Shown: positions 1-21,546, counted from the first letter of the stretch. The stretch: 64,000 nt of DNA from an uncultured Phycisphaerales bacterium (GCA_963755915.1 CAVWLP010000002.1:4384001-4448000); one strand, 5' to 3'. Made by a program: numbers and translations. The notes: generated from the sequence alone by a model not told the origin.

Positions 1-1
1 C

Positions 2-541
2 CTGGGCTGGACGCCCCAGGGTCTCTACGTCGCCCTCCAGGTCTTCGACAAGGACATCATTACCACCCCCGCCAGCGCCTGGTGGTGGACGCGCGACAAC
101 GTCGAACTCTTCCTCTCCACCCGACCCGTAACCACCGATGAGATCAATTACGACGTCTTCTGCCAGCAATTCTTCCTCATCCCGCGCGACGCCACCTTGA
201 AAGACGCCCCCGTCGTCGGCCAATGGCACCGCGACGGCGACGCCCTCAAAGACAACCTCATCCCCCATCCCCTGATCCAGCGGACCGTTAAAATCCTCCC
301 CGACCGCTACATCGCCCAGCTCTTCATCCCCGCGGCCGTCATGCACGGCTACGATCCCCAGCACCACGCCACCCTCGCCTTCAACATTCACGTCCGCAAC
401 TTCTCCCACGCCGCCGACTTCTTCTGGTCCGCCCCCAAATCCAGCCGCACCGAGCTCCGCCCCAACACCTGGGGAACCCTCTACCTCGACCCCCCGCTCC
501 CTACAACTGTCGCCCACTCCGCTCAAGCGCGACTTGACTGA
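2..541 (+). CDS. C-terminal part of a CBM9/DOMON-like sugar-binding domain protein (5' end outside window)
   Basis: Frame open from position 2 (LGWTPQGLYVALQVFDKD...WWWTRDNVELFLS), in frame with ORF 197..541; the W..gLYva..V.D and W..D.vElf patterns resemble CBM9-like domains. Confidence 0.55.
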   Translation: MGWTPQGLYVALQVFDKDIITTPASAWWWTRDNVELFLSTRPVTTDEINYDVFCQQFFLIPRDATLKDAPVVGQWHRDGDALKDNLIPHPLIQRTVKILPDRYIAQLFIPAAVMHGYDPQHHATLAFNIHVRNFSHAADFFWSAPKSSRTELRPNTWGTLYLDPPLPTTVAHSAQARLD

Positions 542-618
542 AATTGTTTAGCCGCGACCCCCCGAGCGAAGCGGTAACCTTATCTCGGGGAGCGCTCCGC
601 AACTATCATTGAATCGCA

Positions 619-3513
619 ATGCCCGCCCAGACCCTGGAAAATCGCACCCACGAGATCGGCCGCGAGATCTTCACGCGCATTAACCACGCCAATCGCCGCG
701 GCTGGCCCCTGCGCACCATCGACGACGCCATGATGGCCTGGTCCATGCGCGACCCGCGCCGAAAATCCCAGCTCTTCCGTTTTGTCGATTGCCTCCCCGC
801 CCTCCACTCCACCGATTCCGTCGCCGCCCACCTCCACGAATATCTCGGCATCTCAGGAAACGGCATGGCCCCCCTCCTCGCCGCCGCCGCCAGGCTAGGC
901 GTAGGCCGAATGGCCAGAAAATTCATCGCCGCCGAAAATCCCCAGGCCGCCCTCTCCGCCATCCAGCGCCTCCGCGCCCAGCATCTCGCCTTCACCGTCG
1001 ATCTCCTCGGCGAAGCCGTCGTTTCCGAATCCGAGGCCGACGAATACCAGCGCCGATACCTTCAGCTCCTCCAATTCCTCCCCCCCAAATCGCCGCGCTC
1101 CCCGAAGACCCCCTGATCGACCGCGACGCCACTGGCACAATCCCCCGCGCCAATATCTCCGTAAAACTCTCCGCCCTCTTCAGCCAGTTCGACCCCATCG
1201 ACCCCTTCGGCACCACCCAATCCGTCCTCGCCCGCCTTCGCCCCATCCTTCGTCTCGCCCGCTCCCAGGGCGCCTTCATCAATCTCGACATGGAGCAGTT
1301 TGCCTTCAAAGACCTCACCCTCGAAATCTTCCGAACCGTCCTGATGGAACCCGAATTCCGCGACTGGCCCGACGTCGGCATCGCCATGCAAACCTATCTC
1401 CGCTCCACCCTCGATGACCTCAAATCCCTTGCCGACTGGTCCCGCCACCGCGGCGTCCCCGTCTCGGTCCGCCTCGTCAAAGGCGCCTACTGGGATTTCG
1501 AAACCGTCATCGCCGCCCAGCACAACTGGCCCATCCCCGTCTTCACCCACAAATCCCAAACCGACGCCAACTTCGAATCCGCCGCCGCCTTCCTCATCGA
1601 AAACCGCGCCCTTCTCCGCCCCGCCATCGCCGGCCACAACGTCCGCAGCATCGCCTCCGCCATCGCCCACGCCGAAAAATTCGCCGCTCACCCCGCCGAG
1701 ATCGAATTCCAGATGCTCTTTGGCATGGCCGACCCCATCAAATCCGCCCTCATCGAAATGCACCGCCGCGTCCGAATCTACGCCCCCATCGGCGACCTTC
1801 TTCCCGGCATGGCCTATCTCGTCCGTCGACTCCTGGAAAATACCTCCAACGAATCCTTTTTGCGGGCTGGCTTTCTCGACCACGCCCCCGAGGAGCAATT
1901 GCTCATGAACCCAGCTTTAATCAAACACGCCTCACCGACCCCAACCAAACCCGTCTTCCAAAACGAACCCCCCACTGATTTCTCGCAGCGCGGCTTCCGC
2001 GAGACCATGGCCTGGGCCATCGACCATTTCTCCGCCAAACCCCCCGCCTCCCATCCCCTCCTCATCAACGGCCGTCGCATCGAAACCGGCAAATGGATCG
2101 ACTCCGTCAACCCCTCCCACAAATCCCGCCTCGTAGGCCGCTGCGCCTGCGCCGGCCCCGACCAGGCCCACCAGGCCATCGCCGCCGCAAAATCCGCATT
2201 CGCAACCTGGCGTGATATCCCCCCCGATCAGCGCGCCTCCCTCCTCGATCGCGTCGCCGAAATCCTCCGCTGCGACCGCTTCCACCTCTGTGCGATCGAA
2301 ATCGCCGAGTGCGCCAAACCCTGGCGCGACGCCGATGCCGACATCGCCGAAGCCATCGACTTCTGCCGCTACTACGCCGCCCAGATGCGCGAGCTTTCCC
2401 AACCCGCCGGCGCCGACCTCCCCGGCGAACGAAACGACTGGACCTACGAATCCCGCGGCCCCGCCGTCATCATCGCCCCCTGGAATTTCCCCCTCGCCAT
2501 CCTCACCGGCATGGCCGCCGCCGCCGTCGTCACCGGAAATCCCGTCATCCTCAAACCCGCCGAGCAATCCCCCATCATCGCCTGGCATCTCGCCAAAGCC
2601 TTCGAAGAAGCCGGCGCCCCCCGGCGTCGTCAACTTCCTCCCCGGCATCGGTGAAGAAATCGGCCCTCTGCTTGTGGATCACCCTGACATCGCCATGATC
2701 GCCTTCACCGGCTCCAAAGCCGTCGGCCTCTCCATCAACTATTCCGCCGCCAAACCCCGCGACCACCAGGATCACGTCAAACGCGTCATCGTCGAAATGG
2801 GCGGCAAAAACGCCATCATCATCGACGAAGACGCCGACCTCGACGAAGCCGTCGCCGCCCTCCTCGCCAGCGCCTTCGGCTACTCAGGCCAGAAATGCTC
2901 CGCCTGCTCCCGCGCCATCGTCCAGCCGGCAAATTACGACGCCTTCCTGGCTCGCCTGATCAGCGCAACGTCGAGCTTAAAAATCGCCCCCGCCGAAGAC
3001 CCCGCCTGCCGCATCGGCCCCGTCATCGACGCTGACGCCCACACTCGAATCCTCGCCGCCATCGAGCGCGGCAAAACCGAAGCCCGCCTCGCCTATGCCG
3101 GCAACCCCGGCCCCCTCTCGAGCGAAGGCTATTTCATCCCCCCCCACATCTTCACCGAGGTCCCTCCCAACAGCTCCCTCGCCACCGAAGAAATCTTCGG
3201 CCCCGTCCTCTCCATCTTGAGAGCCGACAACCTCGATCACGCGCTGCAACTCGCCAACGGCGCACAGTACGCCCTGACCGGCGGAATCTTCTCCCGCAGC
3301 CCCGCCAACATCGCCCGCGCCCGCCACGATTTCCGCGTCGGAAATCTCTACATCAACCGCCCCACCACCGGCGCCCTCGTCGGCCGCCAACCCTTCGGCG
3401 GTTTCAAACTCTCCGGCGCCGGCACCCAGGCCGGTGGCCCCGACTACCTCCGCCACTTCCTAATGCCCCGCTGCGTCACCGAAAACACCATGCGCCACGG
3501 TTTCACAGACTAA
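619..3513 (+). CDS. putA: Bifunctional proline dehydrogenase / P5C dehydrogenase, split by two frameshifts in C runs (~1085, ~2620)
   Basis: LFRFVDCLP, DLLGE, ISVKLS, DME, VRLVKGAYWD, EFQMLFGM, YLVRRLLEN (PRODH); PWNFP, KPAEQ, FTGS, EMGGKN, GQKCSACSR, EEIFGP, QPFGGFKLSG (ALDH). Confidence 0.95.
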
Positions 3514-3604
3514 TTTTCCACCTAAAATTCGGCGCGACGCACCCTCTCCTCGTTTAGCCGCAACCCCGAAGGGGTGCGCGTTCTGTGCTATCATCCACAT
3601 TCCC

Positions 3605-4315
3605 GTGCCACACACCTTCAAACATTCCGGTGACATCGGCGACGTCATCTGGAGCCTCCCCGCCATCCGCGCCCTCGGTGGTGGAATCCTCTACCTCGAC
3701 CCCGACGGCGGCCTCTCCAGCCCCCTCGTCAAATGGGAAGGCCGCACCCAAACCCGCATGAACGCCGACATCATCCGAGCCGCCATCCCCCTCCTGAAAT
3801 TACAACCCTACCTCGAAGACATCCGCCCCTGGCAAAACAACCCCATCGATTTCGACCTCGACCGCTTCCGCAAATCCGGCAGCTTCAACAACGTCTCCGA
3901 CTCCCACCTCGCCGCCTTTTCCCTCCCCTTCCCCGAGCGCGACCGCGCCTGGCTCACCGTCGACCACCCCCTCTCCATCCCCGATCGCCCCTTCATCCTC
4001 GCCCGCAATCTCCGCTATCACGGCAACGATGGTTTCTGGGAAGCCACCCTCCCCCACATCAAAAATGACGCCCTCTTCGTCGGCTCACCCAAGGAGCACG
4101 AAATCTTCGAACTCACCTTCGGCCACAAAATCCCCTACCACCCCACCCCCGACCTCCTCTCCCTCGCCCGCCTCCTCGCCGGCTGCCGCCAATTCATCGG
4201 CACCCAGGGCCTCCCTCACGCCATCGCCGAAGGATTGAAAATTCAACTCGTCAACGAATACTACCGCTACTACCCCTCCGCGATATTCAATCGCCCCGGC
4301 GCCCAATACGTCTAA
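3605..4315 (+). CDS. Hypothetical protein, GT9/heptosyltransferase-like fold
   Basis: N-terminal HSGDIGDVIWSLPAIRAL and C-terminal FIGTQGLPHAIAEGL resemble GT9 motifs; host-type codon usage. Confidence 0.5.
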   Translation: MPHTFKHSGDIGDVIWSLPAIRALGGGILYLDPDGGLSSPLVKWEGRTQTRMNADIIRAAIPLLKLQPYLEDIRPWQNNPIDFDLDRFRKSGSFNNVSDSHLAAFSLPFPERDRAWLTVDHPLSIPDRPFILARNLRYHGNDGFWEATLPHIKNDALFVGSPKEHEIFELTFGHKIPYHPTPDLLSLARLLAGCRQFIGTQGLPHAIAEGLKIQLVNEYYRYYPSAIFNRPGAQYV

Positions 4316-4346
4316 ACAAAAAAACCCACGGCTCCATGCCGTGGGT
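4316..4346. terminator. Hairpin between convergent genes (terminator or REP-like)
   Basis: ACCCACGG-CTCCATG-CCGTGGGT preceded by an A-run (U-tract on the - strand). Confidence 0.6.
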
Positions 4347-4370
4347 CATTATCAATCAGCCAAAACCGCA

Positions 4371-5209
4371 CTACCTGTGTCCACCACCGCCCCCAAACCC
4401 ACCACCTCTCATCCCCCCGCCCACAAATCCACCGCGACCACCCCCACCCCATCCACCACGATAGCCCCACCCGCCACGGTAACCGCCCCAATAGCGCCCA
4501 CCCCCGCCGATCACCACGATCCCGCCATAACCGAAATACGGATACCCGTAGTAACCGCCGTAGTAACCACCATAATAGGGATACGAATACACATACGAAG
4601 GCTGCGCCGGATAAACATACGTCGGCTGCTGCGCCTGCCCATACACATACGTCTGCGTCGGCTGCACATCAGCCGTATCCGCCGTCGCATAAGTCGGTGG
4701 AACCGTCGATTGATCCGGCCCATACGTCGAGATCGGCATCTGATTCGCCGCCTGCGCCTGCGGCAGCGCCGCACTCACCTGGTTTGAAATCGCGTCCTCG
4801 ATCTTAAACAGATCCGTCAGCGCCCCCGTCGACGTCAGCGCCGCCACCGTCCGGTTATTCACCGTATCGTACACCTGCCCCGTCACCCGAAGCTGCGTAT
4901 CCGCAAACTGGTAAGTCCCAAAAATCACCAGCGGCGCTCCACATGTTGGGCCGCGCTCACCGCTTCCGCCTGCCCGTTCAGCGGCACGTTCAAGTTGATC
5001 GCCCGCACCGCCGAATTCCCCGCAACCTGCGTCACCAGGTTCTCGTTGATCGCCTGCCCCACCCATTCATGATCCGTCGCACCGATCTGCACAAAGGGCA
5101 CCACCAGCACCTTCGTCTGCACCGCCGGATCAGGCATCGTCGTCGCCTGCCCCAGGCTCATAGACACACACCCCAAAACCACCAGCAACAAATAGGGGAT
5201 GTTTTTCAT
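4371..5209 (-). CDS. Secreted TolB-N/CsgG/FlgO-like domain protein with Tyr/Gly/RGG-rich tail (frameshift ~4945); paralog of 5296..6126
   Basis: Signal peptide MKNIPYLLLVVLGC..., KVLVVPF..IG...HEWVG, then LVIFGTYQF..QLRVTGQVYD in the next frame; colinear with the neighbour. Confidence 0.65.
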
Positions 5210-5295
5210 AACTGGCTCCTGTTCTTCCACCATTATACGCGTCATCAAAGAGCAAACCGCGCATCCCCTATAAATAATCCCCCCATTTGCACCGT

Positions 5296-6126
5296 TTATC
5301 GCCCATGCCCACCCCCGCCGCCCCCACCGCCATGGAATCCACCCCCAAAACCCCCACCCCCATGGAAACCGCCTCCCCCATGAAATCCCCCGCCTCCATG
5401 AAATCCGCCGCCCCCATGAAATCCACCATGGAAATACCCCCCACGATAAAACCCTCCATGCGGATATCCCCAACCTCCATATCCGCCCGACAGATACACC
5501 GGCCCACCGTAATACGGATACCCATAATCAGCACTGTCATCCGAATAAGCCGGGTAAGGATAAACGTACGTCGTCACTGCATTGCCCCCGCTTTCATCCG
5601 CCGACGTGTAATACGGCACCGGTGATCCCTGCGCCCCATACGTCGCGCCCGCAAGCTCCCCCGTCGGCTGCGGAAGCACCGCCCCCAGTTGCGCGCTGAT
5701 CGAATCTTCCATCTTGAACAGATCCGTCAGCGCCCCCGTCGCCGTCAAAGTCGTCAGCGTGCGCTGATTCGCCAGATCATAAACCTGCCCATTCACCCGA
5801 AGCTCACTCTCCGAAAACTGATACGATCCAAACACCACCAGCGTCGCCCCCGCATTCGCCGCCGCCGCCGTTGCCGCTGCTTCCCCGTTCACCGGCCCAC
5901 TCAGACTCATCGCCTGAAGCTCCGGATCCCCCGCAATCTCCGTAAGCAGATTCTCCTGCAACGCCGCCCCCACCCATTCATGACCGTCGCCCCCAATCTG
6001 CGTAAACGGAACCACTAGCACCTTGACCAGCGGCTGCGCCTGAACAGCCGGCATCGTCGTCGCCTGCCCAAACGCCATCGACGCCACCCCAAACACCACC
6101 AGCAAAAACCAAATCACCTTTCTCAT
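5296..6126 (-). CDS. Secreted TolB-N/CsgG/FlgO-like domain protein with (GGGGFH)n tail
   Basis: Intact 276-aa ORF with GGAG SD, signal peptide, VLVVPF / LVVFGSYQ / LRVNGQVYD motifs and Gly-rich tandem repeats. Confidence 0.7.
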   Translation of the reverse strand: MRKVIWFLLVVFGVASMAFGQATTMPAVQAQPLVKVLVVPFTQIGGDGHEWVGAALQENLLTEIAGDPELQAMSLSGPVNGEAAATAAAANAGATLVVFGSYQFSESELRVNGQVYDLANQRTLTTLTATGALTDLFKMEDSISAQLGAVLPQPTGELAGATYGAQGSPVPYYTSADESGGNAVTTYVYPYPAYSDDSADYGYPYYGGPVYLSGGYGGWGYPHGGFYRGGYFHGGFHGGGGFHGGGGFHGGGGFHGGGGFGGGFHGGGGGGGGHGR

Positions 6127-6218
6127 AACGCACTCCTTGAACGTCTAAGCGAATTCTATGGACATTCACCAGGAGTATTCGCGCCACCCGCTAAAAATAC
6201 CCGCAATTTCTAAGCGGG

Positions 6219-6602
6219 CTACTTCACCAGCCTGTTCCACAGCGGAGGCCCCAGAATCACCACTCCCACCACAACAGCCATGATCGAAGCAATAAGCACC
6301 ATCCCCGCCGCCACGTCCTTGCCGGTTTTCGCCAGCGGATGCACCTCCGGCATCGCCAGGTCAATCGCCGCTTCAATCGCCGTATTCACCCCCTCCAGAA
6401 TTAGCACAATCGCAATAGTTATCGCCAAAATCGCCCACTCCACCCTCCCAATCCCCACCCACCACCCCACCCCACACGCCCCCGCCCCGATCACAACTTC
6501 AACCCGCGCATTTCTCTGCGTCCGCAAGAGATACCCCAACCCCGCAAACGCAAACCCAAACGACCGAAATATTCCCCCGCGACCAGGCTTCTCGTCACCC
6601 AC
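6219..6602 (-). CDS. dgkA: Diacylglycerol/undecaprenol kinase (DgkA family)
   Basis: SFGFAFAGL..RTQRNAR, LEGVNTAIEAAIDL, HPLAKTGKDVAAG; GTG start at 6602 with GAGG SD gives a typical 127-aa length. Confidence 0.9.
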   Translation of the reverse strand: MGDEKPGRGGIFRSFGFAFAGLGYLLRTQRNARVEVVIGAGACGVGWWVGIGRVEWAILAITIAIVLILEGVNTAIEAAIDLAMPEVHPLAKTGKDVAAGMVLIASIMAVVVGVVILGPPLWNRLVK

Positions 6603-6609
6603 ATGTGCC

Positions 6610-6840
6610 TCACGACTAGCTTTACGGCTATCTCTGGCCTTGTCTCCGAAGCCACGACTCGAACCCAAGCGCGCTCCGGGCAGGTCGGACAAGCGGGGCT
6701 GTGAAGGACGGTTGAGGTCGAGCATGTGCTCGAAACTCCTTAGCGCCCTGCCGCCGTAGGCGGCGACTCCCTGCCGAACACCTCAAGGCGGTCCCGATTG
6801 TCACCAAGGCAGCCTTGTGCTCCCGCAGCGGAACCGCCTG
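6610..6840 (-). ncRNA. Candidate structured RNA / long structured 5' leader (unassigned family); partial second copy at 22564..22693
   Basis: Stem AGGCGGTTCCG/CGGGACCGCCT, plus a TTGAGGT/ACCTCAA stem enclosing GCCGCC-TAC-GGCGGC and TCGAGCA-CA-TGCTCGA hairpins; preceded by a conserved GTGAC-N17-CGWAT motif. Confidence 0.5.
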
Positions 6841-6946
6841 TTACATACGAGTCAACGCATCTCCTCGTCACACAAACCGCAACCGAAAATAATCCGCCTT
6901 CTCTTCTCGGCCCTACCAAACCATCTCGCGAAACAAAACCTCAACA

Positions 6947-7861
6947 TCAAATCTTCCAAGAATCCCCCACCTCCCGATTCACAACTCTTTCACTCTCCCT
7001 CCCCGCCGCCGTCAGCATCCTCTCCATCGGCTCCGTCATCGCCTCATGGCTCAGGCGAAACGTACTATGATGCATCGGCATCACAAATTCCGCCCGCACA
7101 TGCCCCGCCATCGTCCACGCCTGCTCCGGCGAAGCATGCGCCCGGATATAAGGGTCATACGCCCCGATCCCCAGGATCGCCAAATCCACCCGTCCCACAT
7201 CCTTAAACCATTCCTGGTAAGCCGTATCCCCGCCGTAGAGAATCTTGCGGCCGCTCGTCTCCAGAAGATAAGCGTTATACCCCCGGTAGCTATCGATAAA
7301 CGTCCGCGCCCCCCAGTGCTCCACCTTCCGCGCCGTCACCGCCAGTCCGTTAAACCGCGCCGACTCCCCCCACCGCAGCTCAGTAACATTTCGAAACCCC
7401 AAATCCCACACCAAATCGCGCGTCCGATCCGCCATCACGATCGGCGTCTTCTTATCCAGCCCCGCCAAACTCGGTCGATCCAGATGATCAAAATGCGCAT
7501 GGGAACTGAGAATCAAATCGATCTTCGGCAACTGATTGAGTCTCAGCGCCGCCCCGATATATCTCCGCGGCCCCAGCGTCCCCAATCCCAATCCCAATCC
7601 AATCCGATTCCCAAACACCGGATCCGTCAGCACCGTCATCCCCCCAATCCGCATCAGAATCGTCGCATGCCCGATCCAAACCGCGGACAATTCCCGATCC
7701 TCCCACCCGCGCAGATCCGGCCGAACCTTCGCCGCCGGCGGTGGATTGATCTGATCGAATATCCGCATCTGTCCCCGCCCCCGTCCCAGCCGTGCCGCCA
7801 GCTCCATCGCATACGGCCTGCGCTTCAAAACATCCGTCACCGTGCGCCACACCGATTTCAC
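6947..7861 (-). CDS. MBL-fold metallo-hydrolase (NAPE-PLD/RomA-like)
   Basis: WIGHAT, LTDPVF, SHAHFDHLD, HWGAR, GGDTAY, GIGAYDP, PMHHSTF. Confidence 0.9.
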   Translation of the reverse strand: MKSVWRTVTDVLKRRPYAMELAARLGRGRGQMRIFDQINPPPAAKVRPDLRGWEDRELSAVWIGHATILMRIGGMTVLTDPVFGNRIGLGLGLGTLGPRRYIGAALRLNQLPKIDLILSSHAHFDHLDRPSLAGLDKKTPIVMADRTRDLVWDLGFRNVTELRWGESARFNGLAVTARKVEHWGARTFIDSYRGYNAYLLETSGRKILYGGDTAYQEWFKDVGRVDLAILGIGAYDPYIRAHASPEQAWTMAGHVRAEFVMPMHHSTFRLSHEAMTEPMERMLTAAGRESERVVNREVGDSWKI

Positions 7862-8619
7862 AAAATCTCCGAGATGACCGGAAAATGATCGCTCGCATAT
7901 TTCGCCAGCCGATCCCGCTCGATCCCCGCGTCCTTGATCTTCGAGATATCGATCCCAAACGTGAAGATATAATCCACCCGCTGCCCCGGAAACTGCGTCG
8001 AAAAGCTCCCCGTTTTCGCCGCCTTCCAGGGATCGTGCGCGTAAAACGTATCCAGATACCCCGCATCCAAAAGCTTATGCACCGCCGTCCGCGGCAGCAT
8101 CCCCCCATTCGCCTCATAATCCCCCTTCGTCCGCTCCTTGCACTTCTCTATCTCAATCGCCTGGATCGGCGAATTCGCATTAAAATCCCCCGCCAAAACA
8201 TGCGGCCGATTCCCCTTCCGATGCCCCGCGAAAATCTCCAATATCGCGTCAATCTCCCGCTCCCGAACCTTCTCATCCTCGAGCTTCGCATGCGGATGCA
8301 AATGCACCGCCGCCACGGTCCACTCCTGCCCATCGACCGACACCGTCGCCTCCAGCAGACAATCCGAAAGCACGATCCGCAGCACTGAATGATTCACCGA
8401 CTCAATGATATTCCCCCGCACGAGGATCGCGGCTCCGTGCTTCTTCCCATCCACCCGCAGATATTCCATCTTCAGCCGCTTCGCGATCCGCTCCACAACC
8501 GCATCATCATCCGCCTCCACCAGCGCCACAATATCCGCCCGCTGCGCCTCAATGACTTCCGCGAGCGGATCGGCACGTCCGACGCCTCCGTCGAGAATGT
8601 TGTACCCGACGATCCTCAT
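7858..8619 (-). CDS. Endonuclease/exonuclease/phosphatase family protein
   Basis: YNI, DIVALVE, VHLHP, LAGDFN, RVDYIF, ASDHFPV; 4-bp overlap with the MBL gene. Confidence 0.9.
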   Translation of the reverse strand: MRIVGYNILDGGVGRADPLAEVIEAQRADIVALVEADDDAVVERIAKRLKMEYLRVDGKKHGAAILVRGNIIESVNHSVLRIVLSDCLLEATVSVDGQEWTVAAVHLHPHAKLEDEKVREREIDAILEIFAGHRKGNRPHVLAGDFNANSPIQAIEIEKCKERTKGDYEANGGMLPRTAVHKLLDAGYLDTFYAHDPWKAAKTGSFSTQFPGQRVDYIFTFGIDISKIKDAGIERDRLAKYASDHFPVISEIL

Positions 8620-8725
8620 CCGCGTTTGATGGTAGCGCCACCCGCCCCAAAAGCAACGGGGAAGCCCACTCAGCTTTCCCCTCCCCGGGTATGGCGGGGC
8701 AGGGCGACATAATTTTACGTTTTGT

Positions 8726-10215
8726 TAATCCCGTTCGGCACGCAGGCTTCATCGGAGCATTCCAAAGCTGTGGAGGACGCGAAACAATTGAAGCTTAGAT
8801 ACTTTTACTTTCCCCTGCTGCACGCCGGCGTCCGCAAGAGCGCAGCATCAACCGCGAGGTCTCCGCGGCGACGGATTCCCCTTCAGTTTACTCCCAGTTT
8901 TTTCAAGGCCTCCGCTCTTGCCCTCAGCTTAATCCCGGTGTTATCCGGCTTGTTCAGGAATCGAAGCACGTCCTGTTCCTCGGCCAGCCCCAGCAGATAC
9001 CAGCCGATCATGTTCCGCATCGCCTTGTTCGGCTTCCTGCCGCTGATCAGCTGAATCAGCACGCAGACGATCAGCGCGCAGTGGATTTGGATGTCGATCC
9101 CCTCCTGGCGTTGGCTCAGCAGGTGACGCATGCCCAGCAGTTGCTTGAAGATCCGGAAGAACAACTCAACGGTGTAGCGGTACAGATAAATCAGGGCGAT
9201 CAATTCCGCCGGCAGGTCCAGCAGGTTCGTGTACAGGATGATCAGGTCCGTCGGCTTGTTGCCGCTGCGCGTGCGGCGCGGATGGGGTTTCACCTGCACT
9301 TCCACCCGTCGCACCACCCTATCCGCCGCCGTCTCCAGGCCGTCGAGTTTCACCAGCGCGTCTCGCACCACGCCGCCGTCCAATGCTTCCTGTGAAAGCA
9401 ATCGTTCTTCAAACAGCTCAAACACCGAGTTTTCCGCGGCCCGCATCACAAAGGAGCTTTGCGCCGCGGCGATGTCCGCAAAGAGGCTCCGGTCGGCGTA
9501 GCCGCCGTCTCCTACATAGCACCGTCCTGCTTCCAGGCTGCGCCGCAGGACGTTGTTTTCACGGTTGGCCCCCGCGTTGCGAGCGCCAGTGCGGTCGAGG
9601 CGATGGACTTTGAACGTCTCCAGATCGAATTGAACGTGCAAACGCCAGCCATAGACCGCTTTCCCGTCCCGGGAGGTGTTGTAGCGCGCATCGATGCCGC
9701 AAGCGGATTTGGCCAGCCGACTCAGCGCCGTCAGCACCGTCCCGTCGACCAGCGTGATCGCCTGCCCAAAGTCCGCAAGACGCGGATCGGGCGCCTGGGG
9801 CAGTTCCCCCGCCAATTCCTCAATCAGCGGCGTCAAACGCCCCGGCTCGAACACCCGAACCGATTCAGAGAAACTGCCCACGGAAAAACGCTTAATTCCC
9901 AGCGCCTTGGCCACCTTGGGCAGTTCAGCAACCTCCTGAAGATCCCGCAGGGATTGGATCAGCGGATTCCAGGTGTAAAGCAAAACCAGCTTGCAATAAT
10001 CGTCGAAGTGAAGCTGGCGGTTCCCGGCTCGATCCCGCTCACAGCCCACATCCCGCAGCGTGGGCAGCAGCGCGAAGACGCGCCGCAGATGTCCGAGGCA
10101 CAGGATCTCTTTTTCCTTCAGTCTTGCCTGCACGTCCGGCAGCATGCCATAAAAAGATCAAAGGCGCAATCTCAATATCTTGCTGCTTGCGCGAACCCCG
10201 TGCCGAACGGGATTA
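8726..10215 (-). mobile_element. IS4-family insertion sequence, copy 1 (1490 bp)
   Basis: 17-bp perfect terminal inverted repeats TAATCCCGTTCGGCACG; DDE transposase inside. Confidence 0.92.
8883..10145 (-). CDS. IS4-family DDE transposase (intact)
   Basis: LVDGT, YVGDGGY, YLYRYTVELFFRIFK (Y-R-E-K signature). Confidence 0.93.
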   Translation of the reverse strand: MLPDVQARLKEKEILCLGHLRRVFALLPTLRDVGCERDRAGNRQLHFDDYCKLVLLYTWNPLIQSLRDLQEVAELPKVAKALGIKRFSVGSFSESVRVFEPGRLTPLIEELAGELPQAPDPRLADFGQAITLVDGTVLTALSRLAKSACGIDARYNTSRDGKAVYGWRLHVQFDLETFKVHRLDRTGARNAGANRENNVLRRSLEAGRCYVGDGGYADRSLFADIAAAQSSFVMRAAENSVFELFEERLLSQEALDGGVVRDALVKLDGLETAADRVVRRVEVQVKPHPRRTRSGNKPTDLIILYTNLLDLPAELIALIYLYRYTVELFFRIFKQLLGMRHLLSQRQEGIDIQIHCALIVCVLIQLISGRKPNKAMRNMIGWYLLGLAEEQDVLRFLNKPDNTGIKLRARAEALKKLGVN

Positions 10216-10345
10216 ACAAAACGTAAAATTATGTAAAATCCGCAGCTGGCGGCAGCCGGAAGCTGCCGGGCGGTACGCCGCAAAACTTTAGGCCGGAAGC
10301 CGCTCCGTGGCTGGACGCCACGGCGGGCGGTACCCCCCAGTGGTA

Positions 10346-10420
10346 CGTAGGGTGGCGCGTACTCGCCCACCATTCCCTGATCGGCAGACCAAACGGTGGG
10401 CGAGTACGCACCACCCTACG
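10346..10420. repeat. REP doublet (REPIN-like), GTAG family
   Basis: CGTAGGGTGGCGCGTACTCGCCCACC (10346-10371) and its inverted copy (10395-10420); a third copy at 22510-22534. Confidence 0.8.
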
Positions 10421-10455
10421 GTCTTGCTAAAATCGCGTAAAACGTAACAAAACGT

Positions 10456-11944
10456 TAATCCCGTTCGGCACGGGGTTCGCGCAAGCAGCAAGATATTGAG
10501 ATTGCGCCTTTGATCTTTTTATGGCATGCTGCCGGACGTGCAGGCAAGACTGAAGGAAAAAGAGATCCTGTGCCTCGGACATCTGCGGCGCGTTTCGCGC
10601 TGCTGCCCACGCTGCGGGATGTGGGCTGTGAGCGGGATCGAGCCGGGAACCGCCAGCTTCACTTCGACGATTATTGCAAGCTGGTTTTGCTTTACACCTG
10701 GAATCCGCTGATCCAATCCCTGCGGGATCTTCAGGAGGTTGCTGAACTGCCCAAGGTGGCCAAGGCGCTGGGAATTAAGCGTTTTTCCGTGGGCAGTTTC
10801 TCTGAATCGGTTCGGGTGTTCGAGCCGGGGCGTTTGACGCCGCTGATTGAGGAATTGGCGGGGGAACTGCCCCAGGCGCCCGATCCGCGTCTTGCGGACT
10901 TTGGGCAGGCGATCACGCTGGTCGACGGGACGGTGCTGACGGCGCTGAGTCGGCTGGCCAAATCCGCTTGCGGCATCGATGCGCGCTACAACACCTCCCG
11001 GGACGGGAAAGCGGTCTATGGCTGGCGTTTGCACGTTCAATTCGATCTGGAGACGTTCAAAGTCCATCGCCTCGACCGCACTGGCGCTCGCAACGCGGGG
11101 GCCAACCGTGAAAACAACGTCCTGCGGCGCAGCCTGGAAGCAGGACGGTGCTATGTAGGAGACGGCGGCTACGCCGACCGGAGCCTCTTTGCGGACATCG
11201 CCGCGGCGCAAAGCTCCTTTGTGATGCGGGCCGCGGAAAACTCGGTGTTTGAGCTGTTTGAAGAACGATTGCTTTCACAGGAAGCATTGGACGGCGGCGT
11301 GGTGCGAGACGCGCTGGTGAAACTCGACGGCCTGGAGACGGCGGCGGATAGGGTGGTGCGACGGGTGGAAGTGCAGGTGAAACCCCATCCGCGCCGCACG
11401 CGCAGCGGCAACAAGCCGACGGACCTGATCATCCTGTACACGAACCTGCTGGACCTGCCGGCGGAATTGATCGCCCTGATTTATCTGTACCGCTACACCG
11501 TTGAGTTGTTCTTCCGGATCTTCAAGCAACTGCTGGGCATGCGTCACCTGCTGAGCCAACGCCAGGAGGGGATCGACATCCAAATCCACTGCGCGCTGAT
11601 CGTCTGCGTGCTGATTCAGCTGATCAGCGGCAGGAAGCCGAACAAGGCGATGCGGAACATGATCGGCTGGTATCTGCTGGGGCTGGCCGAGGAACAGGAC
11701 GTGCTTCGATTCCTGAACAAGCCGGATAACACCGGGATTAAGCTGAGGGCAAGAGCGGAGGCCTTGAAAAAACTGGGAGTAAACTGAAGGGGAATCCGTC
11801 GCCGCGGAGACCTCGCGGTTGATGCTGCGCTCTTGCGGACGCCGGCGTGCAGCAGGGGAAAGTAAAAGTATCTAAGCTTCAATTGTTTCGCGTCCTCCAC
11901 AGCTTTGGAATGCTCCGATGAAGCCTGCGTGCCGAACGGGATTA
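10456..11944 (+). mobile_element. IS4-family insertion sequence, copy 2 (1489 bp), inverted relative to copy 1; transposase 10526..11787 frameshifted at ~10594
   Basis: Same TIRs and same protein; CGCGTTTCGCG versus CGCGTCTTCGCG in copy 1 (1-bp loss). Confidence 0.92.
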
Positions 11945-12259
11945 ACGTTTTGTTACGTTTTCGGCGAATTAGTTAGTATATGCTAACTCATTTTGATTTA
12001 AGTCTGTGTGGGGGAGGTGGTTGCGTGGGGTTTGGTTAATTTTCAATAAACGCGGGGTGTAACATTGCTGGATAGGAATTCGCCCGCTCTTTCCACTTTC
12101 CACCGCTCTGCTCTCTCACGAAGCGAGGCGGAGATCGTGCGGGTCCGCGATGTTTCATCCGCAAGATTGTCCGGCAGTAATCTATCGAGTAACTTGTATG
12201 CGGACTCCGATCCGGAGTAACTGTGCTCTGAGTCGCGACATACGTAAAGGTGGTGCCTG

Positions 12260-12499
12260 ATGGCCGAATCTCAATTCGAAAAAGGCGACACGGTAATGCT
12301 AAAGAGTGGCTCGCGGTTGATGACGATTAAGAGCTTTCAGGACAACGACGCGGAGTGCCATTGGGTGGATAAAGACGGAAAGCCGGAGTCGGCCAATTAC
12401 GATACTTCAATGTTACGTCACGCAACGCGCGCTGTACCTCGCATAATCGCCTTGCGGCGGCCCAGTGTCACCCCAAGTAATTCGCCAGAATATTCTTGA
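12260..12499 (+). CDS. YodC/DUF2158-family small protein
   Basis: FEKGDTVMLKSGSRLMTI...AECHW pattern; AAGGTGG SD-like sequence upstream. Confidence 0.7.
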   Translation: MAESQFEKGDTVMLKSGSRLMTIKSFQDNDAECHWVDKDGKPESANYDTSMLRHATRAVPRIIALRRPSVTPSNSPEYS

Positions 12500-12820
12500 T
12501 ACCGGCGATCATTGCCTCCACGTCCTGCCGAGTAAATTGATCGAATTCGCCGTGGGCGGCTTTGTTGCGAATGTGTGCCCAAGCCTCTAGCTGTGCAGCC
12601 ATCGTTTGTTTGAACACATCAGCTTTTTTGAGCGCTACGATAAGCGGGCTGAGGGTCAGCGGATTGCCTTTGGCATTCGTTGTCGGTATCGACGGTTTCT
12701 GCTTTTGGCACAAAGTCCTTAGAGTTTTCTCTAAGACCGCGCCAGCTAGGACGGCTGCGGGGACATGGTCATTCTTGCCGGATTGACCCTCAACGAGAAG
12801 TTCGTCCGCTTGTCCCATGG
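12468..12820 (-). pseudogene. C-terminal fragment of a HEPN/DUF4145-like protein, 5' part replaced by the IS3 remnant
   Basis: PAAVLAGAVLEKTLRTLC...IRNKAAHG (RxxxxH); the upstream part of the ORF is antisense IS3 sequence. Confidence 0.7.
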
Positions 12821-12821
12821 C

Positions 12822-13502
12822 GGATCGGCAGGTGAGCGTCTGCGTGAACACGGTGGCGCGTCTGATGAAACAGGCCGGATTGCAATCGCGGATTCGCCGG
12901 CGATTCGTCGTCCATACCACCGATTCGAATCACGATGAGCCGGTCGCGGCCAATGTGCTGGACCGCCAGTTCGCAACTGAGCGCCCAACCGCAAGTGGTG
13001 CTGCGACATCACCTACGTTCCGACGGATGAAGGATTCCTATACCTGGCGGCCGTGATCGACCTGTGCAGTCGGAAAATAGTCGGCTGGTCGATGGCCGAT
13101 CATCTGCGAAGTGAGCTGTGTCTGGAAGCGATATCGATGGCGCTGACACATCGCCGACCGGAGCGAGGTTTGCTGCACCACTCCGATCGCGGTGTCCAAT
13201 ACGCCTGCGAGACTTATCGACAGATGCTGGCGGAGCATGGGATGGAGCGGAGCATGAGCCGCACCGGCAATTGCTACGACAACGCGGTGATGGAGAGCTT
13301 TTTCAGCACGCTGAAGACGGAGCTCATTTATCACGAGCACTACGCAACGCAAGCGGAGGCTCGGCGTTCGATCTTTGAGTACATTGAAGTGTTTTACAAT
13401 CGCCAGAGACGTCACTCGGCGATAGGCTACCAAAGCCCCGAAGCGTTCGAGGCCAGCCTGAACTGACGATTTGGCCGCGCCCACCGAACGTGGGGAAGGT
13501 CA
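12822..13502 (+). mobile_element. 5'-truncated IS3-family element (OrfB integrase core, frameshift ~12988)
   Basis: TTDSNH, NVLDRQF, DITY, HHSDRGVQY, GNCYDNAVMESFF, FYNRQRRHS; ends ...GGGGAAGGTCA; no OrfA or left end. Confidence 0.9.
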
Positions 13503-13586
13503 CTACGGAGGATCAGAAAAATCGCGTCCTCTTCGTTGGCCACTTTGTTTAAACTTGGATCGCTTAACCGCAAATGGCCGACCGGG

Positions 13587-13795
13587 TTGGGCCGAAGAAA
13601 AAATCCGGATGCCGTGAAAACCGAATGGATCGAGATGCGCGTCGAGAAGTCCGAAAGGGATACGTTCCGCGCCGCCGCTGACGCAGCCGGATTGCCGCTG
13701 TCCGGCTGGATAAGGCAACGCTTGCGCCATGATGCGAAATAGGAATTGGAGGATTTGGGGTTGCCTGTGCCATTTGTTGAGCGCCTAGGCGTCTG
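13587..13795 (+). pseudogene. Ribbon-helix-helix/DUF1778-like small DNA-binding protein with a probable premature TAG at 13740
   Basis: IEMRVEKSERDTFRAAADAAGLPLSGWIRQRL; the frame continues ELEDLGLPVPF after the TAG. Confidence 0.45.
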
Positions 13796-15164
13796 ATCGC
13801 GGCTCCCCGCTCTGAACAGAGACAACATGCACAGTCGCTAAAGCGCCAGCAAATACAGAAAAAGGGCTTCGCGACCCAGAGAAATCGGCTTGCTCTGTCA
13901 ACTTAAGGAATCCGTCAACAGAAATAGAAAAAGACGAATTCCTATAAACCAAATCGAAGGTGTGCAATTCATTTTTGGTGATTCGGCCAGCATCCCTTTT
14001 GTCGTAGGCCTCGTCCTTAAAGCGTCGCGCGAATGGTCCCTTCCAAATGTGGAGGTAGCCCTCATTCATGTGTTGTTCCCAATTGAATATGATTTCTTCC
14101 TCCACATAACTAAGTCGGACATTTGTTGAATTGGTCATTGCGACTACGCGGAAAGCGATTGGAACGGTAAACGGATCGGGGGTCTGAATGCGATTTTTCC
14201 TCTCGTCATCCAATTCATAGATTCCGTTTTCGAACGATTTGTAGTTTTGCCCCATTCTACCAATCCATTCGGTCGGATTACCGGCAAATGGCGATCTGAT
14301 TTCAGGCAGCCGGCGGTCAATCGCTTTTCCAAGAACTGCCGCAGCGGAAACTTGCTGACTTGCACGGCGACTGATCTTAAAGAGGGAATCACGACCGAAT
14401 AATCGAACGCCGGGATCGAGCCGAAGAAGGCTTTCCGCCGTAGACGTGTTCTCCGGAAATTTTATATACCTGCCGTCAGGATATATCAGCCTTAGTTCTT
14501 TTGCCCGGCCGTATATGGGTGGGTCGTCACTCATTTCCAACACTTGATGTTCAACTTTTTGCGGCGATCCATCATCGCCAGCGCAGAGCAAGAGGATTAC
14601 CTTATCCCTCAATGGAAAGCCCCTAAGCGTCGTATCAAACCAATCTAGGCCTGTCCCCCATGCGGCCTCAAATGACCATTTGCCGTATGTCTTTATGAGC
14701 CGATCAAAATCAGTTTCCGCACGAACTGCCTGAGTAGTGGGGGGCGACAAGCCATTTTGTCTCGACAGCAGATTTCGCAGAACAAGCAAAAAACCCATCC
14801 CCACAATAAGCAGAGCTGCCAGATAGTAAATCGCAAATTTGCGGTCGCTAGAGTTGTTGATAACAGCCGCCCACATGAAAGCTACCACCAGCCATCCAAG
14901 CAGCAAATAGCGGGCTTTCTTGCCAGAAGCGGTGATCGATGAGAGGCCCATTTGAATTTTCGTCAATCTATTTTGCTCGGCAAAATGCTGGTTTGACTGC
15001 TTCCCCTGAAGGAATGTCGTCACCGCCGAAATTATTTGAACAATGGTTTGAATAAGAAGCAGAATAGTGCCGAATATGGCCGTCAACGCGAGAATGTTTG
15101 GGAGGGTCATCCCAAACATTACTTTTGCCTCAGTTTCTGCAATGGGTGGCAGGACTATCGACAT
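13785..15164 (-). CDS. Hypothetical membrane protein (three N-terminal hydrophobic segments, C-terminal beta-rich lectin/ConA-like region), low GC
   Basis: Long ORF in AT-richer DNA; C-terminal HTFDLVY..SFSISVDG pattern. Confidence 0.6.
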   Translation of the reverse strand: MSIVLPPIAETEAKVMFGMTLPNILALTAIFGTILLLIQTIVQIISAVTTFLQGKQSNQHFAEQNRLTKIQMGLSSITASGKKARYLLLGWLVVAFMWAAVINNSSDRKFAIYYLAALLIVGMGFLLVLRNLLSRQNGLSPPTTQAVRAETDFDRLIKTYGKWSFEAAWGTGLDWFDTTLRGFPLRDKVILLLCAGDDGSPQKVEHQVLEMSDDPPIYGRAKELRLIYPDGRYIKFPENTSTAESLLRLDPGVRLFGRDSLFKISRRASQQVSAAAVLGKAIDRRLPEIRSPFAGNPTEWIGRMGQNYKSFENGIYELDDERKNRIQTPDPFTVPIAFRVVAMTNSTNVRLSYVEEEIIFNWEQHMNEGYLHIWKGPFARRFKDEAYDKRDAGRITKNELHTFDLVYRNSSFSISVDGFLKLTEQADFSGSRSPFSVFAGALATVHVVSVQSGEPRSDA

Positions 15165-15481
15165 ATCTATTCTCCAGAAACCGGGTTCGCCCGGCGCTAT
15201 GCCGCCGCTGGAGAGGCAACGGCATAGCGCCAAGGCTTCGACGGATAGCTATTCCGCCGTTCCCGAATAACTGGATTATCGCAAAATTGGGAAGGGCGGT
15301 CACTTTAGCCACTCCCTCCCGCACAACCCGTCATGCAGACGTCGGTTCCGTTGTGCAAACCGCTTCCCTTGTGCAAAGCCCGCGGACCGTAAAGCTTTGT
15401 ATTCAATTGTCCGTACCAAAATCTCCATCGCTCCGGCCACCCAAACGCCCCACCCCCGTCTTCGCAACTATAATCCCCCCA

Positions 15482-17479
15482 GTGAATCTCCTCCCCCCCA
15501 TCGACCTCGCCTGGCAGCACCAGCAGGCCGGCCGCCTCAACGAGGCCGAAGCCATCTGCCGCCAGCTTCTCACCCACGACCCCAACAACGCCCCCGCCCT
15601 GCATCTGCTGGGCGTCATCGCCAAGCTCACCGGCAATGACGACGCCGCCCTTGAGCTTCTCGGTCGCTCGGTCGCCGTTGCCCCCAACGACCCCTTCGCC
15701 CAAAGCAATCTCGGCAACCTTCTTCGCGACAAAGGGCGTTTCGACCTCGCCCTGGCCGCCTATCACAAAGCCATCGCGCTTGACCCCAATTTCGCCGCGG
15801 CCTTCTTTAACCTGGGAATGTGCCACTGGCAGATGAACCAGGACGACCACGCCATCGCCAATCTCCGCCAGGCAATCCACATCTCCCCCGGCATGACCAA
15901 CGCCTGGTTCGCCCTCGCCACCGTCCTCAAGGAGGCCGGGCAGATCGAGCCTTCTATCGCCGCCTGCCAGAAGGCGATTGAACTCAACCCCAACGCCGCG
16001 GGGTACCACTACTCGCTTGCCGACGCATACGAACTCAAATCTCCCCCCTTGCACGACCAGGCCATCGCCGCCTACCGCCGCGCGATCGAGATCGATCCCA
16101 ATTACTCCGAAGCCCGCTGCGACCTCGCCGTCGCCCTCGCCGCCCTGGGCCGCGCCCCCGAATCCGAAGCCGCCCTCACCGACGCCGCCGCCCACGGCGC
16201 CGCCCCCGCCCTCCTCGCTCTCACCCGCGGCCGAATCCTCCACCGCGCCGGCCAATCCGAAAAAGCGATCGAATTTCTCCGCCGCGCCGCTCAGCTCGAT
16301 CCCGATTCCTGGCGCGCCTGGTTCAACCTCGGCAACGCCCTGCGCGAAACCGGCCGCTTTTCCGAAGCCGCCCAGTGCGTCCCCCGCATCCTCGCCCGCC
16401 GCCCAAATTCCTCCCACGCCTACGGCCTGCTCTCCAGCCTCGGCGCCGATCTCGACCCCTCCGAAATCTCCCGCCTCTCCCAATCCCTCGACGACCCCCA
16501 GCTCTCAAACGCCGATCGCGCCGCCCTAGGCTTCGCCCTCGGAAAATTCCTCGACAAATCCGCCCGCTATGACGAAGCCTTCACCCACTTCACCCGCGCC
16601 AACGCCGCCGCCCGCGATCTCCGCCGCGCCGCCGGCGAACGCTACAGCAGCGAACAATTCTCCCGCCACATCGACGACCTGATCGCCCTCACCACCCCCG
16701 ACTTCTTCACCCGCTGGCACACCGCCGGCGTCCGCTCCGATCTCCCCGTCTTCATCGTCGGAATGCCCCGCTCGGGAACCACCCTGATCGAACAAATCGC
16801 CGCCAGCCACCCCCAAATCTTCGGCGCCGGCGAGCTCAATGACATCCCCACCCTCGCCGCAAAATTAAATTTCCCCCACTGTTCCCCCGATCAAATCACC
16901 CAGACCGCTCAGCATCACCTCGACCACCTTCGCTCGCTCGCCCCCTCCGCGGCCGGCGTCATCGACAAGATGCCCGCGAACGTCGAGCATCTGGCCCTGA
17001 TCGCCGCCCTTTTCCCCGAAGCCAGGATCATCTTCTCCCGCCGCGACCCGCGCGACACCTGCCTCTCCTGTTTCTTCCAACCCTTCCTCGAAGGAAATCT
17101 TTTCAGTTTCGACCTGGCCGACTGCGCCCGCCATCACGCCCAGATCGACCGCCTCATCGAGCATTGGAAATCAGTGCTGCCCCTGCGCATGCTGGAAGTC
17201 CAATACGAAACCCTGGTTCAGGACCCCGACCCCCAATCCCGCCGAATCATCGAATTCCTGGGCCTTCCCTGGCACCCCGCCTGCCTGGATTTCCACCACA
17301 CCCAGCGCCCCATCCACACTGCCAGCGCGTGGCAAGTCCGCCAGCCGCTCTACAATCACTCCATCGGCCGGTGGAAAAATTATGAGAAATATCTTGGCCC
17401 ACTTTCGGACGCCCTGCGCCTTACCCCCTCTCCCGGTACTCCGGGAGAGGGCAGGGGTGAGGGCCTTGGAAAAATCTGA
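15482..17479 (+). CDS. TPR-repeat sulfotransferase
   Basis: Multiple TPRs; FIVGMPRSGTTLIEQI, DKMPAN, RDPRDTCLSCF, TASAWQVRQPLY; likely GTG start at 15482. Confidence 0.92.
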   Translation: MNLLPPIDLAWQHQQAGRLNEAEAICRQLLTHDPNNAPALHLLGVIAKLTGNDDAALELLGRSVAVAPNDPFAQSNLGNLLRDKGRFDLALAAYHKAIALDPNFAAAFFNLGMCHWQMNQDDHAIANLRQAIHISPGMTNAWFALATVLKEAGQIEPSIAACQKAIELNPNAAGYHYSLADAYELKSPPLHDQAIAAYRRAIEIDPNYSEARCDLAVALAALGRAPESEAALTDAAAHGAAPALLALTRGRILHRAGQSEKAIEFLRRAAQLDPDSWRAWFNLGNALRETGRFSEAAQCVPRILARRPNSSHAYGLLSSLGADLDPSEISRLSQSLDDPQLSNADRAALGFALGKFLDKSARYDEAFTHFTRANAAARDLRRAAGERYSSEQFSRHIDDLIALTTPDFFTRWHTAGVRSDLPVFIVGMPRSGTTLIEQIAASHPQIFGAGELNDIPTLAAKLNFPHCSPDQITQTAQHHLDHLRSLAPSAAGVIDKMPANVEHLALIAALFPEARIIFSRRDPRDTCLSCFFQPFLEGNLFSFDLADCARHHAQIDRLIEHWKSVLPLRMLEVQYETLVQDPDPQSRRIIEFLGLPWHPACLDFHHTQRPIHTASAWQVRQPLYNHSIGRWKNYEKYLGPLSDALRLTPSPGTPGEGRGEGLGKI

Positions 17480-17548
17480 CGCACACACGGCCCTCACCCG
17501 CGCGGACTTCGTCCGCTTGCCCTCTCCCGGAGTACCGGGCGAGGGGTG
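17424..17548. repeat. Inverted pair of CCCTCTCCCGGTACTCCGGGAGAGGG..GGGGTGAGGG palindromic repeats
   Basis: Two inverted copies; further copies at ~21193-21236 and degenerate ones at ~8678-8704 and ~22386-22427. Confidence 0.8.
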
Positions 17549-17589
17549 GAGCCGCAAAAGTGCTCGCATTGGTAGAGCAGTATTCCCGA

Positions 17590-18384: not shown

Positions 18385-18438
18385 GCTCCCTCAAAATCCT
18401 AAACGACCGCGACGCAATTTCAAACCGATCGCTGGGGG

Positions 18439-18572
18439 AAAACCAGAAACCCGAAACCAGAATTCCGAATCAAACCCGAATGACCGAATGACGAATAAAA
18501 GTGGCACCCATTCGGATTTCGTCATTCGGATTTGATTCTGGTTTCGGGTTTCTGGTTTCGGATTTCAATTTC
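18439..18572. repeat. Long imperfect palindrome built from heptamer-like repeats
   Basis: AAACCAGAAACCCGAAACCAGAAT...ATTCTGGTTTCGGGTTTCTGGTTT; inner CGAATGAC/GTCATTCG. Confidence 0.75.
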
Positions 18573-18575
18573 CAT

Positions 18576-19043: not shown

Positions 19044-19051
19044 AACTCTCC

Positions 19052-21471: not shown

Positions 21472-21481
21472 CGCCATCTCC

Positions 21482-21520
21482 AAAAAAAAGCCACGCGGTC
21501 TTGATTCAAGGCCGCGTGGC
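21482..21520 (-). terminator. Intrinsic terminator directly upstream of the ABC transporter start (attenuator)
   Basis: GCCACGCGGCCTTGAATCAAGACCGCGTGGC followed by T8, then GGAG-N6-ATG. Confidence 0.85.
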
Positions 21521-21546
21521 GGGAATTTCCAGTTCTATGGGCAGAT

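Follow-up and report, generated by a model that had tools for sequence, protein, structure and literature searches.

A conserved two-copy intergenic module from an uncultured Phycisphaerales bacterium: a possible alternative-sigma promoter with a short RNA

Introduction

The small RNAs that depend on alternative sigma factors include RybB, MicA and MicL of the enterobacteria, in which a strongly conserved promoter lies directly before a short RNA and the 5' end of the RNA is its best conserved part. Other small RNAs form multicopy families, as do Qrr1-5, OmrA/B and RsmX/Y/Z, and the defined hairpins and terminators of these families are their Rfam signatures. Intergenic space is also occupied by repeat families, of which ERIC, the Correia elements, MITEs and REP are examples.

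We describe a module of about 140 nt that can be compared with all three groups. It occurs twice in a 64,000-nt stretch of DNA from an uncultured Phycisphaerales bacterium, referred to below as the window. Like RybB, MicA and MicL, the module is compact and able to stand alone in an intergenic gap; unlike those RNAs, it is not matched by Rfam, the conserved unit carries no intrinsic terminator, and there are two diverged copies, about 80% alike and 15.8 kb apart. With Qrr1-5, OmrA/B and RsmX/Y/Z it has in common the appearance of diverged paralogues that keep a promoter architecture and a conserved segment, but it differs from them in showing no conserved helix and in that its GGGA motifs are not demonstrably in loops. 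Its length (about 130-150 nt), intergenic position, presence in more than one copy, possible outward promoter and repeat-filled neighbourhood recall ERIC, Correia elements, MITEs and REP, whereas terminal inverted repeats, a long imperfect palindrome and a short target duplication at the ends are all missing. Word searches of the literature, which cannot retrieve a sequence motif, returned nothing on such an element. The explanation that we prefer, tentatively and as somewhat short of probable, is that the module consists of an alternative-sigma promoter and the short RNA transcribed from it, the 5' end of which is conserved and unstructured.

Two copies of a non-coding module

An earlier note on this DNA had proposed an approximately 80% repeat between 6764-6894 and 22564-22693, and this is what alignment recovers: blastn of 6894-6764 against 22693-22564 gives 82.4% identity across 131 nt (E 1.5e-32). 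Without gaps, 6770-6906 and 22569-22705 are 80% identical, with 107 of 135 bases the same. From the alignment and the family boundaries given below, copy 1 is placed at 6764-6906, between a gene for an MBL-fold protein (6947-7861) and dgkA, and copy 2 at 22564-22705, between a globin gene (22778-23233, - strand) and a convergent gene (21669-22373, + strand). The copies are co-oriented, both on the - strand. A two-copy nhmmer profile finds them in the 64 kb at E 2.9e-66 and 1.3e-61, the next best match being at E 2.4; neither this DNA profile nor a protein-level profile run on the six-frame translation finds a third copy in the window.

Upstream of 6906 or downstream of 6764 there is no significant likeness between the copies: that which extends upstream to about 6950 and 22745 is equalled by 92 of 500 shuffles, and the two copies have no sequence in common past GGGAGTCG. 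A continuation of the homology downstream by way of a shared GAGTCGTGGC was rejected, 62 of 500 shuffles being as good. Derivation of the module from the 5' end of dgkA was likewise rejected; GGGTGACGAGA and ATATTTCGGT recur at the start of that gene, and 352 and 112 of 1000 shuffles, respectively, do as well.

The differences between the copies are spread evenly over the three codon phases (9, 10 and 9), and in all six frames non-synonymous differences (13-17) outnumber synonymous ones (2-6). Because of this evenness and this excess in every frame, the module is, as judged from its pattern of substitution, non-coding. Read as a small protein gene it has no synonymous or third-position excess in any frame; the open frame of the - strand (59 and 57 aa in the two copies) gave 24 word-sharing candidates among proteins, none of them at E <=10, and a search of the ESM Atlas gave no usable match. 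Ten kinds of change separate the copies, among them A>G (9), G>A (5), T>G (3) and C>G (3). Since they are not confined to the adenines of one copy, a template/variable pair of a diversity-generating retroelement was rejected; no reverse transcriptase domain was found among the 76 ORFs scanned, which extend to 41 kb.

Relatives in metagenome sequences

The + strand, antisense to the module, has a frame that is open through both copies. Its translation was run on 1.84 billion protein representatives, and five proteins were returned at E <=0.001. P0126 is a repeat protein of low complexity; the remaining four carry the module translation, namely P0122 (E 8.1e-14), P0123 (E 2.9e-11), P0124 (E 1.6e-05) and P0125 (E 2.9e-05), and are 150-184 aa long. 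In each the module is embedded in otherwise unrelated sequence and the ORF is spurious. The frame is no gene, and the amino-acid identity of the module in it is about 40-68%. A word-index search of longer proteins, with the six-sequence alignment as query, returned the same four. Each comes from one metagenome contig of 940-2201 nt. In tblastn of the four against the window, likeness ends at the module edges, beyond which there are stop codons or compositional matches; the flanks of P0123 and P0124 differ in composition from the window, and the flanks of the relatives are unrelated to dgkA and to one another. The P0125 ORF stops inside the module. The occurrence of the same module in four spurious ORFs with unrelated flanks shows that it is a discrete, conserved and autonomous unit, present in other uncultured bacteria and delimited alike in at least five sequence contexts, and not a chance local duplication.

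This route, in which the translation of a non-coding repeat recovers relatives from protein collections through spurious ORF calls, may be useful more widely. It has a price: the relatives are known as amino-acid proxies that leave every third base undetermined, and tests of structure that include them are of low power. In 38 columns at least three relatives are determined and identical; copy 2 agrees with them in 37 and copy 1 in 34, and the four departures of copy 1 are all among the differences between the two copies. That copy 2 is a decaying orphan, an idea drawn from its 15 gains of G as against 6 in copy 1, was rejected on the strength of this agreement. Because the copy that is closer to the consensus is the one with no downstream gene, the orphan is not decaying, and the module does not depend on dgkA.

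Genome contigs were searched with a 20-position pattern from the core of the module. Among the 118 matches listed, none fits the module profile at E <=1e-3; the best stretch reaches E 0.01, with an alignment confined to the surroundings of the pattern, which is not selective enough where genomes are G+C-rich. Neither blastn nor tblastn found a match to the module in plasmid and phage collections.

Conserved blocks and the promoter question

Four blocks are conserved: an A/T-rich block, GTGAC, CTCG(T/A)A, and a core of about 33 nt just past the proposed transcription start. The A/T-rich block GATTATTTTCGGTT, at 6881-6894 (copy 2: 22680-22693) on the - strand, is the same in both copies and appears as 'TE(N/K)N' in the relatives, for which the - strand read-back is ATTATTTTCGGT. 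Relative to the proposed start it would span about -57 to -44, the place expected of an UP-type element. On the same strand, the -35-like and -10-like blocks read GTGAC-N17-CGTA at 6846-6871 and GTGAC-N17-CGAA at 22645-22670. In the antisense-frame alignment the GTGAC codons ('VT') are kept in all five sequences that cover them and the CTCG(T/A)A codons ('(Y/F)E') in all six, with T in three and A in three; the 'E' and the 'V' are separated by exactly five variable codons in 5/5 sequences. The N17 spacer is the most diverged stretch between the copies. The GTGAC-N17-CG(T/A)A pattern that the earlier note had read, with a diverged spacer of fixed length, is present at 6871-6846 and 22670-22645 and extends to the relatives. 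The best-conserved core, CGGTTCCGCTGCGGGAGCACAAGGCTGCCTTGG, lies at 6804-6836 (copy 2: 22603-22635) on the - strand and reads 'GQP.AP.AAE' in the antisense frame. A complementary match to this core (14/16) inside the gene at 5296-6126 is at chance level (E 5.7). The final 45 nt or so of the module are less conserved.

The fixed, free spacer and the pattern of blocks give the module its promoter-like appearance. A simple consensus scan found no sigma-70-type promoter on the - strand of either copy. GTGAC-N15-19-CGWA is not enriched in the window, with five matches against 4.0 expected, two of the five being the copies themselves, and the ECF sigma gene of the window has no such motif upstream of it. 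In the -10-like block the T is variable (CGTA in three, CGAA in three), which is unusual for ECF promoters. Intrinsic terminators were sought in and right after the module: there is none at copy 1, and one weak site lies about 170 nt downstream of copy 2.

One published ECF motif was compared, that of the ECF41 target promoters, TGTCACA-n16-CGTC (PMC3426412). The module is alike in having two blocks, a spacer of 16-17 nt and a downstream block that starts with CG, but on the reading strand its upstream block is (T/G)GTGAC and not TGTCACA, and its downstream block CG(T/A)A and not CGTC (PMC3426412). The gene context of the ECF41 type is absent at the module. Of the earlier description as ECF-promoter-like, the two-block pattern with fixed spacing stands, but it amounts to a resemblance, with no enrichment in the window and no fit to the ECF41 motif.

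The ECF-type sigma gene of the window lies at 28303-28974 on the - strand, with a gene for a Ser/Thr protein kinase (27455-28279, -) immediately after it; beside it a response regulator gene is divergent at 28992-29837.

The same blocks can be read from the other strand. TCGTCA-17-AATAAT, a sigma-70-like site on the + strand at 6865-6893 (copy 2: 22664-22692), is the sole promoter found in the consensus scan, is present in both copies in the same register with 9/12 matches, where shuffles have on average 0.2-0.3 sites, and is made of the two best-conserved upstream blocks. The module might then be a regulatory device at the level of DNA, with a promoter firing away from dgkA and a core that holds the upstream sites of a regulator. 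We consider this unlikely. Transcripts from the + strand would enter the MBL-fold and globin genes in antisense, with no conserved sequence downstream of their start; P0122 has AAY-GCN ('NA') in place of the second hexamer; and a conserved upstream region of 100 nt is long for an array of operators.

Copy 2 and the repeats around it

Copy 2 lies 72 nt downstream of the globin gene (22778-23233), within the 404-nt gap that precedes the convergent gene (21669-22373), itself recognised by its 65% C at third codon positions. Copy 2 is followed by half of a REP-like palindrome (22504-22550, - strand; the full palindrome is at 10346-10420), then by a duplicate of the final 48 nt of the globin gene with its stop codon (22459-22506, - strand; 96% identical to 22778-22825), then by a second REP (22383-22431) and finally by the convergent gene. 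That copy 2 has no downstream gene and ends near a REP, as had been noted earlier, is therefore correct. The 48-nt direct repeats, 22459-22506 and 22778-22825, bracket 271 nt that contain copy 2; they differ at two positions, both synonymous by reading of the sequence, and may have arisen by integration, by repair or from a lost paralogue. Because the bracketed 271 nt has only the module in common with copy 1, the 48-nt repeat does not mark the ends of the module. The REP-like family to which the second REP belongs has three copies (17420-17468, 21191-21239 and 22383-22431), which are CCGG-centred palindromes with 69-100% identity to the reference.

Such a setting suggests a dispersed intergenic repeat with a role like that of ERIC or MITEs, spread or copied between sites and with any promoter activity incidental. 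The 64 kb is rich in repeats, with two copies of the module, two identical copies of an insertion sequence (IS), two REP-like families and the 48-nt duplication, and copy 2 sits in a convergent gap packed with repeats and bracketed by one of them. The contigs of all four relatives measure 940-2201 nt, and that of P0125 has an ORF that stops in the module, as would be the case where assemblies break at repeats. In addition, a metagenome relative of DgkA, P0102, has the MBL-fold part and DgkA in one ORF, which leaves no space for a spacer of 344 nt such as the one around copy 1. Indeed, for two copies per 64 kb and relatives on very short contigs, a high-copy repeat is an explanation that fits at least as well as a promoter with a short RNA. 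On the other hand, the module has no terminal inverted repeats and no palindromic build (the only internal pair, of 11 nt, is in copy 1, and copy 2 has none); its ends are not those marked by the 48-nt repeat, since the bracketed 271 nt terminate in sequence that copy 1 does not share; and it is unlike the IS of the window and any plasmid or phage record. Moreover, the blocks and their fixed spacing are kept across hosts of visibly different composition, and the orphan copy agrees with the consensus at 37/38 positions, which argues for selection on the sequence. A dispersed repeat is a serious possibility, although on this evidence rather an unlikely one.

The two identical IS copies, each of about 1.5 kb, are at 8707-10234 and about 10430-11970, encode a DDE_Tnp_1 transposase and have 36-nt terminal inverted repeats. 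They stand head to head, with arms 8724-10076 and 10594-11946 that are 100% complementary, and the roughly 195 nt between them hold the REP-like palindrome at 10346-10420. The suggestion that the module could be a fragment of an IS end finds no support in comparisons with the IS family present in the window and with plasmids and phages, as it is unlike either IS copy and any plasmid or phage record.

Copy 1 and dgkA

Copy 1 occupies the 344-nt gap between the MBL-fold gene (6947-7861) and the diacylglycerol kinase gene dgkA (6219-6602, - strand). The latter starts at GTG 6602 and not at ATG 6725: the closest relatives of equal length, P0002 (127 aa, 87% identical) and P0005, begin at the same residues, most of the 120 DgkA relatives listed span only about 61-84% of the 168-aa reading, and third-codon-position G is 22% in 6603-6725 versus 62% in dgkA. 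The closest DgkA relatives listed are all metagenome proteins.

Between the module and the start of dgkA lies a stretch (6603-6763, - strand) that is absent from copy 2 and contains two hairpins, GCCGCC-TAC-GGCGGC and TCGAGC-ACAT-GCTCGA. Close relatives of DgkA do not retain this stretch, since P0003 and P0004 (76-92% identical) have an unrelated upstream reading. That this leader is a structured RNA, its G and C being balanced in a G-rich context, was rejected on account of its ordinary folding (z 0.18 and 0.13) and its lack of conservation in those relatives. Of the earlier proposal that copy 1 extends some 160 nt further to dgkA, the position of the gene stands, as it does begin there, but the leader is ordinary in its fold and is not conserved.

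In P0102, whose DgkA is 57% identical, the C-terminal part of the MBL-fold protein and DgkA form a single 230-aa ORF. This fused reading implies that the adjacency of the MBL-fold gene and dgkA is older than the 344-nt spacer that bears copy 1. Directly downstream of dgkA, two - strand genes without Pfam domains belong to the tandem paralogue pairs and arrays of the window, which are 71-94% identical in DNA (4371-6126, 41400-43140, 43775-45736 and 50085-53484).

Tests of the proposed RNA fold

The earlier note had called the module a structured RNA element, closed by a stem. In copy 1 the stem exists: AGGCGGTTCCG and CGGGACCGCCT form an inverted repeat with arms of 11 nt, 6829-6839 and 6786-6796, that would close 6786-6839 on the - strand. 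It is perfect only there. In copy 2 the stem has a G.G mismatch, and a search for inverted repeats finds none there; G is the base of the family at the variable position (copy 2, P0122, P0124 and P0125), giving G.G, and the perfect stem of copy 1 is the exception. In the four relatives 9 of 44 cells are unpairable, while controls in which the partner was slid by 1-3 columns have 5-11 of 42-44. The stem is thus present in copy 1, as claimed, but it is mismatched in copy 2 and does not exceed chance.

Folding energies are similarly ordinary. The z scores of the minimum free energy are -1.24 and -0.43 for the 82-nt domain of the two copies; for the module as a whole they are -0.94 and -0.67. When the two copies are folded together, RNAalifold reaches -32.4 kcal/mol and breaks no pair. 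Against column-shuffled alignments the whole has z -0.37, and the 3' domain, which is matched by 117 of 300 shuffles, has z -0.15; the 5' third is marginal, at -1.97 (14 of 300), and the alignment fold of the + strand has z -0.95. None of the 14 pairs of the earlier structure has a change in each of its partners, and the two pairs that vary are broken in copy 2. A compensatory U-A/C-G pair had been claimed; RNAalifold does contain one such pair, with a different and distant partner, so that it is not in the proposed helix and 0/14 pairs of that structure are compensatory. A search of all column pairs in the six sequences found only five helices of at least five pairs that fit every row, none of which covaries and none of which is in the 3' domain; covariation, which the earlier note had asked to be checked, does not appear among these sequences, four of which enter as amino-acid proxies and give the test low power. 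The - strand is locally rich in G+U, the GC skew reaching -0.36 in 1-8 kb and 16-28 kb, and on such a strand stems that tolerate wobble pairs arise easily. Stems that convince by eye form as readily in shuffled sequence here, which is a caution.

No recognised RNA family had been seen in the module, and the Rfam search agrees: at gathering thresholds Rfam 15 finds only the tRNA-Leu at 62801-62884 in the whole window, and a permissive scan of copy 2 gave four matches, all with E >=3.4. A weak + strand match of radC RNA (RF01754) to 6733-6862 (19.7 bits, E 0.14) was rejected, as it has half of the gathering score of 40; it leans on a hairpin found only in copy 1, bases that do not pair abound in its 3' hairpin, and there is no match in copy 2. 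A conserved fold is thus not supported for the module: with z from -0.4 to -1.2, a column-shuffle z of -0.15 and no compensatory pair, the description as a structured element finds no support, and the results, although the proxy tests are of low power, speak against the proposed fold.

These results bear on another explanation, that of a riboswitch-like, structured cis-regulatory leader of dgkA, with copy 2 a relic whose gene has been lost. Copy 1 does lie in the 344-nt gap upstream of dgkA and is co-oriented with it, its 11-bp stem can close a domain of about 54 nt, and the 5' third has the marginal alignment-fold signal mentioned above (z -1.97, 14/300). A leader of this kind is nevertheless very improbable. 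There is no Rfam match, the z scores range from -0.15 to -1.24 with 0 compensatory pairs, and the stem is mismatched in copy 2 and the relatives. Furthermore, it is copy 2, and not copy 1, that is closer to the consensus; the stretch from the module to dgkA is unconserved in close relatives; and there is no consistent placement upstream of one class of gene, copy 2 having no gene and the relatives having unrelated flanks. As no helix is conserved, an RNA segment that is read by its sequence fits better than a riboswitch.

Composition of the wider window

The GC skew of the window is a mosaic. It is -0.32 to -0.36 in 1-8000 and 16001-28000 (-0.21 over 24001-28000) and near zero (-0.12 to +0.11) in 8001-16000 and 28001-64000. 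Third codon positions within the skewed parts are 60-76% C in genes of the + strand and 53-68% G in those of the - strand, a bias that is absent from genes beyond 27 kb, from the IS and from 13785-15233. The unskewed block of 28-64 kb, which ends near the tRNA-Leu (62801-62884), might be a large acquired island.

Two genes are split. That for putA (proline dehydrogenase / aldehyde dehydrogenase; 619-3513) is spread over three overlapping frames (619-1116, 789-2654 and 2212-3513), as a result of frameshifts that reflect either a pseudogene or errors of assembly. A gene for a sigma-54-dependent activator is divided between two frames (34922-36034 and 35065-35682), with the AAA+ core in one and the lid and HTH_8 in the other.

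A promoter with a short RNA

We return to the preferred explanation, under which the module would be an autonomous small transcription unit of the - strand. The strand, the transcription, the type of sigma factor and the mode of action are inferred from the sequence. The first 70 nt or so would be the promoter, made up of the A/T-rich block, GTGAC as a -35-like element, the free spacer of 17 nt and CG(T/A)A as a -10-like element; these elements would indicate an alternative sigma factor of the ECF type and not the housekeeping one. Transcription is predicted to start near 6837-6840 (copy 2: 22636-22639), which would place the nearly invariant segment of about 33 nt, free of conserved helices, at the 5' end of the RNA. 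Such a segment might act through its sequence, either as the seed by which a trans-acting small RNA pairs with its targets or as a binding site for a protein. As nothing is shared after GGGAGTCG, the small RNAs of the two copies would have non-homologous 3' ends.

Both copies are oriented as are the - strand genes that flank them. Copy 2 would be an RNA gene that stands by itself where two convergent genes leave a gap. In copy 1 this unit would lie upstream of dgkA, and read-through would make it a promoter of dgkA as well and the beginning of the dgkA leader. Among the candidates put forward earlier, a multicopy small RNA or a unit that carries a promoter is still the best reading, but nothing that was tested supports the further suggestion that it titrates CsrA. 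A more specific proposal, that the module is the founding member of an undescribed family of small RNAs driven by an alternative sigma factor, with several copies per genome, an invariant 5' seed of about 33 nt and copy 1 co-opted as promoter and leader of dgkA, a gene of lipid metabolism, in a lineage that is little studied and mostly uncultured, can be entertained, although we doubt it.

In either event the module is a compact, conserved sequence that lends itself to testing. If it should turn out to be merely a dispersed repeat, it would still be a useful marker; if it is a promoter and small-RNA unit, it would provide a first handle on RNA regulation and on recognition by alternative sigma factors in a lineage with close relatives known only from metagenomes.
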